Shown piece by piece: positions 7,640 through 52,787 of a stretch of 64,000 nucleotides of DNA. Position 1 is the stretch's first letter, and the number at the start of each line of letters is the position of its first letter. Origin of the DNA: Escherichia coli. GTDB lineage: Bacteria > Pseudomonadota > Gammaproteobacteria > Enterobacterales > Enterobacteriaceae. The notes under the pieces were generated by a model, which saw nothing but the letters and a program-made list of their open reading frames with translations, did not search any database and was not told the DNA's origin. Location: NCBI RefSeq assembly GCF_003334765.1, contig NZ_QOWT01000017.1. One strand, written 5' to 3'. The translations under genes and the position numbers were made by a program.

Positions 7640-7826
<187 letters not shown>

Positions 7827-13277: not shown

Positions 13278-15520
<2,243 letters not shown>

Positions 15521-47279: not shown

Positions 47280-48476
47280 ATGCTAAAAGTGTTATTGCTC
47301 TTTGTGTTGCTGATTGCGGGGATCGTGGTTGGCCCGATGATTGCCGGCCATCAGGGTTATGTGCTGATCCAGACCGACAACTACAATATCGAAACCAGCG
47401 TCACGGGCCTGGCGATCATATTGATTCTGGCGATGGTAGTGCTGTTTGCCATTGAGTGGCTACTGCGGCGGATCTTCCGCACTGGCGCGCACACCCGTGG
47501 GTGGTTTGTCGGACGTAAGCGTCGCCGTGCACGTAAGCAGACCGAACAGGCGCTGCTGAAACTGGCGGAAGGCGATTATCAGCAAGTTGAAAAGCTGATG
47601 GCGAAAAATGCCGATCACGCGGAACAACCGGTGGTGAACTATCTACTGGCTGCCGAAGCCGCGCAACAACGTGGTGATGAAGCACGCGCCAACCAACATC
47701 TGGAACGCGCAGCGGAGCTGGCCGGCAACGACACCATTCCGGTAGAAATCACCCGCGTACGTCTGCAACTGGCCCGTAATGAAAACCATGCTGCACGCCA
47801 CGGCGTGGATAAGCTGCTGGAAGTTACGCCACGCCATCCGGAAGTATTACGTCTGGCGGAACAGGCGTATATCCGCACAGGTGCATGGAGTTCGCTGCTG
47901 GATATTATCCCATCAATGGCGAAAGCCCATGTTGGTGATGAAGAACATCGTGCAATGCTGGAACAACAGGCATGGATTGGCCTGATGGATCAGGCGCGTG
48001 CCGATAACGGTAGCGAAGGTTTGCGTAACTGGTGGAAAAACCAAAGCCGGAAAACGCGTCATCAGGTAGCGTTGCAGGTGGCAATGGCGGAACATCTTAT
48101 TGAATGTGACGATCATGATACTGCCCAGCAAATTATCATCGATGGCCTGAAACGCCAGTACGACGATCGCCTACTGCTGCCGATTCCTCGACTGAAAACA
48201 AACAATCCGGAACAGCTGGAAAAAGTGCTGCGCCAGCAAATCAAAAACGTCGGCGATCGCCCGCTGTTGTGGAGCACACTGGGCCAGTCACTGATGAAGC
48301 ACGGAGAATGGCAGGAAGCATCGCTCGCCTTCCGCGCAGCGCTGAAACAACGTCCGGACGCCTACGATTACGCATGGCTTGCCGACGCGCTGGACAGACT
48401 GCACAAGCCGGAAGAAGCTGCAGCGATGCGTCGCGACGGTTTGATGTTAACGTTGCAGAATAACCCGCCACAGTAG
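47280..48476 (+). CDS. hemY: HemY (TPR-like membrane protein of the hem operon)
   Basis: 398-aa ORF with two N-terminal TM helices, 2 bp after hemX stop. Confidence 0.92.
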   Translation: MLKVLLLFVLLIAGIVVGPMIAGHQGYVLIQTDNYNIETSVTGLAIILILAMVVLFAIEWLLRRIFRTGAHTRGWFVGRKRRRARKQTEQALLKLAEGDYQQVEKLMAKNADHAEQPVVNYLLAAEAAQQRGDEARANQHLERAAELAGNDTIPVEITRVRLQLARNENHAARHGVDKLLEVTPRHPEVLRLAEQAYIRTGAWSSLLDIIPSMAKAHVGDEEHRAMLEQQAWIGLMDQARADNGSEGLRNWWKNQSRKTRHQVALQVAMAEHLIECDDHDTAQQIIIDGLKRQYDDRLLLPIPRLKTNNPEQLEKVLRQQIKNVGDRPLLWSTLGQSLMKHGEWQEASLAFRAALKQRPDAYDYAWLADALDRLHKPEEAAAMRRDGLMLTLQNNPPQ

Positions 48477-48523
48477 TTCCTTCTCACCCGGAGGCAAGCA
48501 CCTCCGGGGCCTTCCTGATACAT

Positions 48524-48730
48524 AAAAAAACGCCTGCTCTTATTACGGAGCAGGCGTTAAAACAGGTCTGTATGACAACAAGTGGGTGCTTCACTCAACG
48601 TTGTGTCCATGGTGTCTGATGAGGCATAAGCGACATCTGTCAGTGGACGATAAGCACCGTAAACGGCTCTGCGTCATTCCGGAGTTTATGAGGCACTAAG
48701 GCGAACATAAGAGATGGAATGAGCATCTAC
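48524..48730 (-). ncRNA. glmZ: GlmZ small regulatory RNA (activator of glmS translation)
   Basis: Minus-strand sequence from 48730 reads GTAGATGCTCATTCCATCTCTTATGTTCGCC... and ends in hairpin AACGCCTGCTC-CGTAATAAG-AGCAGGCGTT plus TTTTTTT; matches GlmZ (207 nt) as I recall it; no ORF. Confidence 0.85.
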
Positions 48731-49154
48731 TCGTTTATTATGCCACAGAGAATCGGGAAATAACATCCCTTAACACTTGTTATGAGATAATTCTGTAATC
48801 CTCTTTGCTTCCTGAGTAATAACTTCCTGAGTGAATATTTAACCTGAGCTTGATCCTACACATACTTATTATGAATGATAAAATTCATTCAATTAATAAC
48901 ACATATATTAATTGCCGTTAAAACTAAAAACAGCATCAATAATCAACGCGATATAATAAACCTGCCTTACATATCAACTGCGCCAGAGGTAGGATTGAAA
49001 ACGCTCTCCTGATTTTCCAATTCATTTTCTGGATAAATAAATAATTTATTTTTGTCACTATTATTTATGTAATCATCCTGTCAGGGAGAGGGATCTCAAT
49101 TATCAATGCTTAATTACGTCATCATTTTGATGACATGAAACCGGAGCATTTTGC

Positions 49155-50810
49155 ATGGAATTTTCGTTTTCACCCAAACGTCTTGTTGTTGCTGTCGCCG
49201 CCGCTCTTCCTCTCATGGCCAGCGCAGCAGATACCCCGTCAACTGCCACCGCACGCAAAGGCTTTGCCGGATACGATCACCCAAACCAGTATCTGGTTAA
49301 ACCGGCGACCACTATTGCCGACAATATGATGCCAGTAATGCAGCATCCGGCGCAGGATAAAGAAACCCAGCAGAAGCTGGCAGAACTTGAGAAAAAAACC
49401 GGTAAGAAACCGAATGTGGTTGTTTTCTTGCTGGACGATGTGGGCTGGATGGACGTCGGTTTTAACGGTGGCGGCGTGGCGGTGGGTAACCCTACACCAG
49501 ATATCGACGCCGTTGCCAGCCAGGGGCTGATTTTAACTTCGGCGTATTCTCAACCAAGCTCTTCCCCAACCCGCGCCACCATTCTCACCGGACAATACTC
49601 CATCCACCACGGCATTCTGATGCCGCCAATGTACGGGCAACCGGGCGGGCTGCAAGGGTTAACCACGCTGCCGCAGTTGCTGCACGATCAGGGCTACGTC
49701 ACTCAGGCCATCGGAAAATGGCATATGGGGGAAAACAAAGAGTCGCAGCCGCAGAACGTTGGCTTTGATGATTTCCGTGGCTTTAACTCGGTGTCTGATA
49801 TGTACACCGAATGGCGCGACGTTCACGTCAATCCGGAAGTGGCCCTGAGTCCGGACCGTTCTGAATACATCAAGCAATTACCGTTCAGCAAAGATGACGT
49901 TCATGCGGTGCGCGGCGGCGAACAACAGGCCATTGCCGACATTACGCCGAAATATATGGAAGATCTGGATCAACGCTGGATGGACTATGGCGTTAAGTTC
50001 CTCGACAAGATGGCGAAGAGCGATAAACCATTCTTCCTCTACTACGGCACTCGTGGCTGCCACTTCGATAACTACCCAAATGCGAAATATGCGGGTAGCT
50101 CTCCGGCACGCACCTCGTATGGCGACTGCATGGTGGAGATGAACGATGTGTTCGCTAATCTGTATAAAACACTGGAGAAAAACGGTCAGCTTGATAACAC
50201 GCTGATCGTCTTTACCTCCGATAACGGACCGGAAGCCGAAGTACCGCCGCACGGACGCACCCCGTTCCGTGGTGCGAAAGGTTCGACCTGGGAAGGCGGC
50301 GTTCGCGTACCGACTTTCGTTTACTGGAAAGGGATGATCCAACCGCGTAAATCTGACGGTATTGTCGATCTGGCAGATCTCTTCCCTACCGCGCTGGATC
50401 TGGCAGGGCATCCTGGAGCGAAAGTGGCGAATTTAGTGCCGAAAACCACCTTTATCGATGGTGTGGACCAGACATCCTTCTTCCTGGGAACAAATGGTCA
50501 GTCTAACCGTAAGGCCGAGCACTACTTCCTCAACGGTAAACTCGCTGCTGTGCGTATGGATGAGTTCAAGTATCACGTCCTGATTCAGCAACCTTACGCT
50601 TATACCCAGAGCGGATATCAGGGTGGATTCACCGGCACAGTAATGCAAACGGCGGGATCGTCGGTGTTTAACCTCTACACCGATCCGCAGGAAAGCGACT
50701 CCATCGGCGTGCGCCATATTCCGATGGGTGTACCGCTACAGACCGAAATGCACGCGTATATGGAGATCCTGAAAAAATATCCACCACGCGCGCAGATTAA
50801 ATCTGACTAA
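49155..50810 (+). CDS. aslA: Arylsulfatase-like protein AslA
   Basis: 551-aa ORF with signal peptide and sulfatase signature [12 protein letters not shown]. Confidence 0.92.
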
Positions 50811-52350: not shown

Positions 52351-52427
52351 TGGTCGGCGAGAGAGGATTCGAACCTCCGACCCACTGGTCCCAAACCAGT
52401 TGCGCTACCAAGCTGCGCTACTCGCCG
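52351..52427 (-). tRNA. proM: tRNA-Pro (CGG)
   Basis: 77-nt match to tRNA-Pro; reverse complement reads CGGCGAGTAGCGCAGCTTGGTAGCGCAACTGGTTTGGGACCAGTGGGTCGGAGGTTCGAATCCTCTCTCGCCGACCA. Confidence 0.93.
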
Positions 52428-52469
52428 AAATACTGCTTTTTGAATTTTTAGTTCAATTCTTTAAAGTCG

Positions 52470-52556
52470 TGGTGCGAGGGGGGGGACTTGAACCCCCACG
52501 TCCGTAAGGACACTAACACCTGAAGCTAGCGCGTCTACCAATTCCGCCACCTTCGC
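52470..52556 (-). tRNA. leuT: tRNA-Leu (CAG), long variable arm
   Basis: 87-nt tRNA; reverse complement begins GCGAAGGTGGCGGAATTGGTAGACGCGCTAGCTTCAGGTG and ends ...GGGGGTTCAAGTCCCCCCCCTCGCACCA. Confidence 0.93.
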
Positions 52557-52576
52557 ATTGTCACAACTTCTAATAA

Positions 52577-52653
52577 TGGGGTGGCTAATGGGATTCGAAC
52601 CCACGACAACTGGAATCACAATCCAGGGCTCTACCAACTGAGCTATAGCCACC
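52577..52653 (-). tRNA. hisR: tRNA-His (GUG) with extra 5' G(-1)
   Basis: Reverse complement reads GGTGGCTATAGCTCAGTTGGTAGAGCCCTGGATTGTGATTCCAGTTGTCGTGGGTTCGAATCCCATTAGCCACCCCA. Confidence 0.93.
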
Positions 52654-52710
52654 ACTACAAATCTTGTTACGCGGTATTACTACCACCGCAGCTCAAGCGC
52701 CGGGACTAAA

Positions 52711-52787
<77 letters not shown>

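Follow-up and report, generated by a model that had tools for sequence, protein, structure and literature searches.

The glmZ locus and other RNA genes of the window

The window, by which we mean the whole 64,000-nt stretch of Escherichia coli DNA that was analysed, carries on the minus strand at 48524-48730 an RNA gene situated in the spacer between hemY and aslA. The features of this locus are as follows.

47280-48476, plus strand: hemY (398 aa), convergent downstream neighbour (open reading frame; RefSeq annotation of identical DNA)
48487-48508, plus strand: 8-bp hairpin behind the hemY stop codon, lacking a U-tract and lying tail-to-tail with the glmZ terminator
48524-48730, minus strand: glmZ primary transcript, 207 nt, +1 being the G at 48730 (cmscan, K-12 identity, literature)
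48524-48558, minus strand: intrinsic terminator, stem-loop 3, with an 11-bp stem, an 8-nt loop and seven U (terminator scan)
48561-48582, minus strand: predicted single-stranded glmS-pairing region, nt 149-170, GUUGUC ... ACCUGU (accessibility-aware duplex scan)
48578-48580, minus strand: approximate RapZ/RNase E cleavage, nt ~151-153, placed from the literature; stem-loop 2 ends at nt 146 and the cut would yield GlmZ*
48585-48658, minus strand: central stem-loop 2 (nt 73-146), RapZ-binding according to the literature
48666-48730, minus strand: stem-loop 1, nt 1-65 (Rfam consensus; basal helix 91-100% paired across 116 sequences)
48737-48745, minus strand: extended -10 element, TG (48745-48744), one base and CATAAT (48742-48737), read from sequence
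48761-48766, minus strand: -35 hexamer ATGTTA, three of six matches to TTGACA, 18-nt spacer, read from sequence
49155-50810, plus strand: aslA (551 aa), divergent upstream neighbour (open reading frame; RefSeq annotation)

In a cmscan search against Rfam 15 the minus strand matched RF00083 (GlmZ_SraJ) from 48730 to 48524 exactly; the match scored 218.4 bits (E-value 3.4e-56), where the gathering score is 60. The match spans model positions 1-214 of 214, that is, the full model, and was recovered again in a permissive Rfam scan of the 1-kb sub-window 48300-49300, where the two further matches were at chance level (E 0.5-0.6, far below gathering scores). The RNA is identical in all 207 nt to K-12 glmZ (3,986,432-3,986,638), and glmZ (b4456) in NC_000913.3 starts at the same base. 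The initial annotation had read the minus strand from 48730 as GlmZ, beginning with GUAGAUGCUCAUUCCAUCUC, and had proposed a covariance-model search for the family; the 5' end was given correctly, the search was positive, and the identification is upheld by the full-length match, the complete K-12 identity, the glmS site and the hemY-convergent synteny. Compared with GlmZ of K-12 (also SraJ or RyiA), the RNA in the window shares the neighbours aslA and hemY, the sigma-70 promoter, the terminator and the glmS-pairing site, and there is no difference within the RNA itself. The 711-bp hemY-aslA spacer was found in all of the 5,426 complete E. coli genomes searched, and in that search it was 100% identical to K-12 strains. 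On a larger scale, positions 14145-64000 of the window are collinear with MG1655 3,971,162-4,020,999 and share 99.95% identity with it. The 49,856 aligned bases contain 6 mismatches and one gap, the window being very close to the reference but not identical to it.

The 3' boundary is drawn differently in different sources. The primary transcript of GlmZ has been reported as 207 nt and the processed form as ~151 nt (PMC4152352), while the glmZ feature of NC_000913.3 ends at 3,986,603, the first base of the terminator stem, and with 172 nt is 35 nt shorter than the RNA. Because the literature gives a 207-nt primary transcript, we prefer the 3' end of the initial annotation, which includes the terminator, and the 172-nt feature looks like an annotation cut off where the terminator stem begins. 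In the MG1655 record annotated by PGAP the glmZ position carries no feature, nor did any record among the matches listed from the complete E. coli genomes have one beneath the spacer match. Correct placement of glmZ therefore matters for annotation, since it is missed by tracks based on open reading frames and is drawn 35 nt short in the K-12 reference.

GlmZ had also been taken to be the window's sole clear RNA gene other than tRNAs. This part of the initial annotation has to be withdrawn, as Rfam matches esrE and naRNA4 too, and esrE is also annotated. The Erse model (RF02757) was matched over its full length at 14915-15166 on the minus strand with 319.5 bits; in the K-12 reference the same positions correspond to the ncRNA esrE (b4707), which overlaps ubiJ at the 3' end of its coding sequence. 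The naRNA4 model (nucleoid-associated ncRNA 4, CssrE) was likewise matched in full, at 7692-7769 on the minus strand with 92 bits, by a sequence which looks like a pair of REP-type palindromes. Four consecutive tRNA genes on the minus strand at 52354-52787, just past aslB, are the K-12 cluster argX-hisR-leuT-proM.

Fold, terminator and coding potential

The fold predicted for GlmZ is stable (z -3.3). To examine its conservation we searched one genome from each species with a sequence pattern, which gave at least 120 loci across Enterobacterales, the genera including Citrobacter, Enterobacter, Salmonella, Serratia, Yersinia, Pectobacterium, Photorhabdus, Proteus and Providencia. The RNA of the window and 115 distinct orthologues were aligned (116 distinct Enterobacterales sequences among the matches listed), and the Rfam consensus structure was projected onto this alignment via the window sequence. 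Across these 116 sequences among the matches listed, 88.0% of cells in the Rfam structure form standard pairs, while slid controls, in which partners were moved by 1-3 columns, are paired in 34-44%. Compensatory changes on both sides were seen, in the same sequences among the matches listed, in 17 pairs of the Rfam structure (17-20 overall), and the observed covariation was reached by none of 500 shuffles. The signal is concentrated in stem-loop 2, where helices 5-7 are 93-100% paired and nine pairs show compensatory changes, and in the terminator, where this is the case for eight of the 11 pairs (116 sequences among the matches listed). The architecture of three stem-loops (stem-loop 1, central stem-loop 2 and terminator stem-loop 3) is thus conserved with covariation, while loops vary across genera, among the matches listed, by indels of many different lengths.

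Support is poor for the Rfam drawing of the stem-loop 1 apex, whose helices are 25% and 67% paired in the 116 sequences among the matches listed. The region under comparison is window 48686-48710, corresponding to GlmZ nt 21-45 and alignment columns 19-59. A shifted register taken from the minimum-free-energy fold, with nt 21-25 paired to 41-45 and nt 29-31 to 36-38, is 98.6% and 87.6% paired and lifts overall pairing to 94.9%. The shifted pairs are mostly invariant, therefore this is consistency and neither proof nor covariation.

At the 3' end a terminator scan found an 11-bp stem with seven G-C pairs at 48558-48529 followed by a T-rich tail. The hairpin, AACGCCUGCUC-CGUAAUAA-GAGCAGGCGUU, is followed by seven U and ends at 48524; it folds at -19.8 kcal/mol (z -5.8). 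The strong intrinsic terminator with seven Ts described in the initial annotation is accordingly present, and so is the weaker hairpin it placed after hemY, tail-to-tail with the glmZ terminator. The hemY stop codon is at 48476, 47 nt from the glmZ 3' end, and in the hairpin behind it 48487-48494 pairs with 48501-48508 (8 bp, -17.4 kcal/mol, z -2.3). This hairpin was not called as a terminator by the terminator scan, and "weaker" is a fair description because no U-tract follows it. In other Escherichia loci the hemY tblastn match begins 51-52 nt past the glmZ 3' end, while in Escherichia whittamii it begins 316 nt past it, which suggests an insertion of ~265 bp between the convergent genes in that species.

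This arrangement raises the question of whether the stretch is no independent RNA gene but just a conserved element between genes, such as a terminator region of hemCDXY that is shared or bidirectional. The glmZ terminator hairpin does fold on the plus strand as well, at -21.6 kcal/mol, and the region could help to end transcripts of the hem operon because the hairpin of hemY itself is not followed by a U-tract. However, what follows the hairpin on the plus strand is UUAAAACAGG, not a U-tract, and a terminator accounts for ~35 nt, not for a covariance match of 207 nt in which stem-loops 1 and 2 show compensatory changes, while a dedicated promoter would be left unexplained. We consider it extremely improbable that the region is nothing else than a terminator, although a secondary role in ending hem transcripts could exist in addition to the RNA gene.

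The same pattern of conservation bears on whether the locus could be a gene for a small protein or an RNA of dual function. At a cut-off of 20 aa solely mechanical open reading frames of 26-37 aa overlap glmZ, on both strands, which is all that speaks for such a gene. None of at least 40 aa overlaps 48524-48730 on either strand, so that the RNA is indeed invisible to the open-reading-frame track, as had been claimed. Conservation follows base-pairing, with compensatory changes in the stems, and not a reading frame; the many lengths of the loop indels across genera point the same way, and K-12 annotates no small protein at glmZ. A coding function has hardly any probability in our judgement.

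Pairing with glmS and the proposed mechanism

The glmS leader lies outside the window and for this reason was taken from K-12, and K-12 glmY was used as a control. With opening energies included, the best predicted interaction joins GlmZ nt 149-170 (CUUGUUGUCAUACAGACCUGUU) to glmS -41 to -21, with a duplex energy of -19.2 kcal/mol and a total of -11.6 kcal/mol, a value reached by none of 40 shuffles. In the same accessibility-aware scan the best interactions with glmS were -4.4 kcal/mol for GlmY and -4.7 for the GlmZ form of nt 1-151. The published site comprises 15 nt that lie between stem-loop 2 and stem-loop 3, and on the mRNA -41 to -19 (PMC4152352), which matches the predicted position. 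Simpler scans were uninformative. RNAduplex, run on full-length GlmZ and the glmS leader, produced a duplex over the whole length that 484 of 500 shuffles equalled or bettered, and in sliding windows of 26 nt without accessibility G+C-rich stems dominated, GlmY beat GlmZ and 132 of 200 shuffles were as good. The published site was recovered when opening energies were added to the duplex scan.

The glmS site, as predicted by this model of accessibility, is what separates GlmZ from its paralogue. GlmY (Tke1/SroF, RF00128, clan CL00011) is a homologous RNA of three stem-loops, the central one binding RapZ, and belongs to the same glmS circuit; it lacks the glmS-pairing site and acts as a decoy, whereas GlmZ acts by base-pairing. 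The window RNA could be GlmY, a decoy for the protein RapZ without glmS pairing, only in so far as both families share a clan and a similar fold and a lower-scoring overlapping match of the same clan is suppressed in the Rfam scan. Nevertheless, GlmZ is the best clan member at 218 bits over the full length, the window RNA has the pairing site, its position convergent with hemY is typical of glmZ, and it is 100% identical to the annotated glmZ, while K-12 glmY is located elsewhere, at 2,691,157-2,691,340, adjoining glrK and purL. By model score, location, pairing site and sequence identity we rejected GlmY_tke1 as the identity of this RNA, an assignment of negligible probability.

We conclude, with a probability of about 0.97, that the glmZ gene of an Escherichia coli resembling K-12 lies at 48524-48730 and is transcribed and acts as follows. 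Transcription would start at G48730 from a sigma-70 promoter with a weak -35 and a TG-extended -10 element and would stop at the intrinsic terminator at 48524; the product would be an RNA of 207 nt that has three stem-loops. Aided by Hfq, the single-stranded nt ~149-170 between stem-loop 2 and the terminator would pair with the glmS leader at about -41 to -21 and open the hairpin that masks the glmS ribosome-binding site, so that translation of glucosamine-6-phosphate synthase would rise and the mRNA would be stabilised. When glucosamine-6-phosphate is plentiful, the adaptor RapZ is expected to bind the two 5' stem-loops and to recruit RNase E, which would cleave within the pairing site, 6-7 nt past stem-loop 2, and leave behind an inactive product of ~151 nt; cleavage by RapZ/RNase E 6-7 nt downstream of stem-loop 2 has been reported (PMC6602413). 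When glucosamine-6-phosphate is scarce, the decoy GlmY would sequester RapZ and full-length GlmZ would accumulate.

Family membership, exact boundaries, the fold with its covariation, the pairing site, the promoter and terminator sequences and synteny were established here; the lengths of the transcripts, the activity of the promoter and the dependence on Hfq, RapZ, RNase E and GlmY come from literature on the identical sequence. GlmZ is a model regulatory RNA that links the supply of glucosamine-6-phosphate, a precursor of the cell envelope, to synthesis of GlmS, in a circuit where two homologous RNAs and an adaptor protein for an RNase form an unusual hierarchy. The glmZ found here is already known and adds nothing for discovery: for exactly this sequence the literature already contains the sequence itself, the boundaries, the promoter, the target site and the mechanism.

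Promoter type and upstream neighbours of glmZ

Because the -35 hexamer has three of six matches only, a simple sigma-70 scan missed the glmZ promoter. Among the matches listed, other Escherichia loci carry the same extended -10, TGGCATAAT. In E. coli glmZ is known to have a single constitutive sigma-70 promoter within -40 to +1, mapped by deletion and mutation; a mutation of the -10 abolished expression in K-12, where the promoter is sigma-54-independent and not bound by GlrR (PMC3045617). The promoter sequence in the window equals this experimentally mapped one. No GlrR-type site (TGTCN10GACA) with at most one mismatch is present in the 424-bp glmZ-aslA spacer (48731-49154), and no sigma-54 consensus was found near the glmZ start, the best match in the spacer having three mismatches and lying far from the start. 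Over the whole window the sigma-54 consensus at three mismatches gave 283 matches, below the counts in shuffles, hence a query that is too lax. The spacer has a G+C content of 32.5%, compared with 52.8% for the window. According to deletion analysis glmZ expression depends only on the last 40 bp of it (PMC3045617), and the remainder is perhaps concerned with aslA regulation.

Two E. coli strains, L126 (NZ_CP068041.1) and H2 (NZ_AP027818.1), carry IS1 in the glmZ-aslA spacer. In L126 the element corresponds to window position ~49069-49081. It is upstream of both genes, by ~340-350 bp for the glmZ start and by ~75-85 bp for the aslA start codon; this strain retains an intact core glmZ promoter, but aslA may be separated from its own promoter.

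hemY lies convergent downstream in 101 of the 106 loci with enough flank among the matches listed, in agreement with the description of glmZ as convergent with the 3' end of hemCDXY (PMC3045617), while aslA is upstream in only 6/77 orthologous loci among the matches listed, namely those of E. albertii, two species representatives named E. coli, E. whittamii, Superficieibacter electus and a Kluyvera. The glmZ of Salmonella, Yersinia and most other Enterobacterales has the same fold, terminator, convergent hemY and core of the pairing site (GUUGUC...GACCUG) as that of the window. Upstream, however, it has a sigma-54-type element (TGGCAC-N5-TGCA) and two to three GlrR-type TGTCN10GACA sites, whereas the window and other Escherichia loci have neither and have aslA in this place instead.

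Among the matches listed, 118 loci could be scored, and 103 of them have a sigma-54-type GG-N10-GC element at -26/-14; GlrR-like sites within 300 nt upstream average 2.4 in loci with the element and 0.4 in those without. Where at least 1.5 kb upstream was available, aslA adjoins glmZ in none of 68 sigma-54-type loci and in six of the nine loci without the element among the matches listed; all six loci with aslA upstream among the matches listed lack both the sigma-54 -24 element and the GlrR-like sites. Other sigma-70-only loci lost the sigma-54 element by point changes, for example two of Citrobacter (L033 and L063), with CCGCAT replacing TGGCAT.

Loss of sigma-54 control over glmZ in Escherichia has already been published (PMC3045617). 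The only element of our results that might be new is the link of this loss to the aslA junction, a modest observation based on few independent lineages. In the lineage of Escherichia and in a few other genera the ancestral GlrR/IHF enhancer would have given way, together with the sigma-54 -24 element, to aslA (with aslB) arriving immediately upstream, a scenario to which we give slightly less than even odds. Only the -12/-10 region may then have been left, as a constitutive sigma-70 promoter, and glmZ uncoupled from the envelope signalling of GlrK/GlrR (QseE/QseF). The basis for this reading is correlation, with the six loci representing perhaps three independent lineages, and Klebsiella, described in the literature as sigma-70-only, lies outside the promoter-type sample.

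A promoter of the E. coli type together with the 5' part of glmZ was also met in a 279-bp contig of 1.5x coverage (NZ_VLXZ01000176.1) from the assembly of Alkalicoccobacillus porphyridii (Bacillota), where it is almost certainly E. coli contamination.
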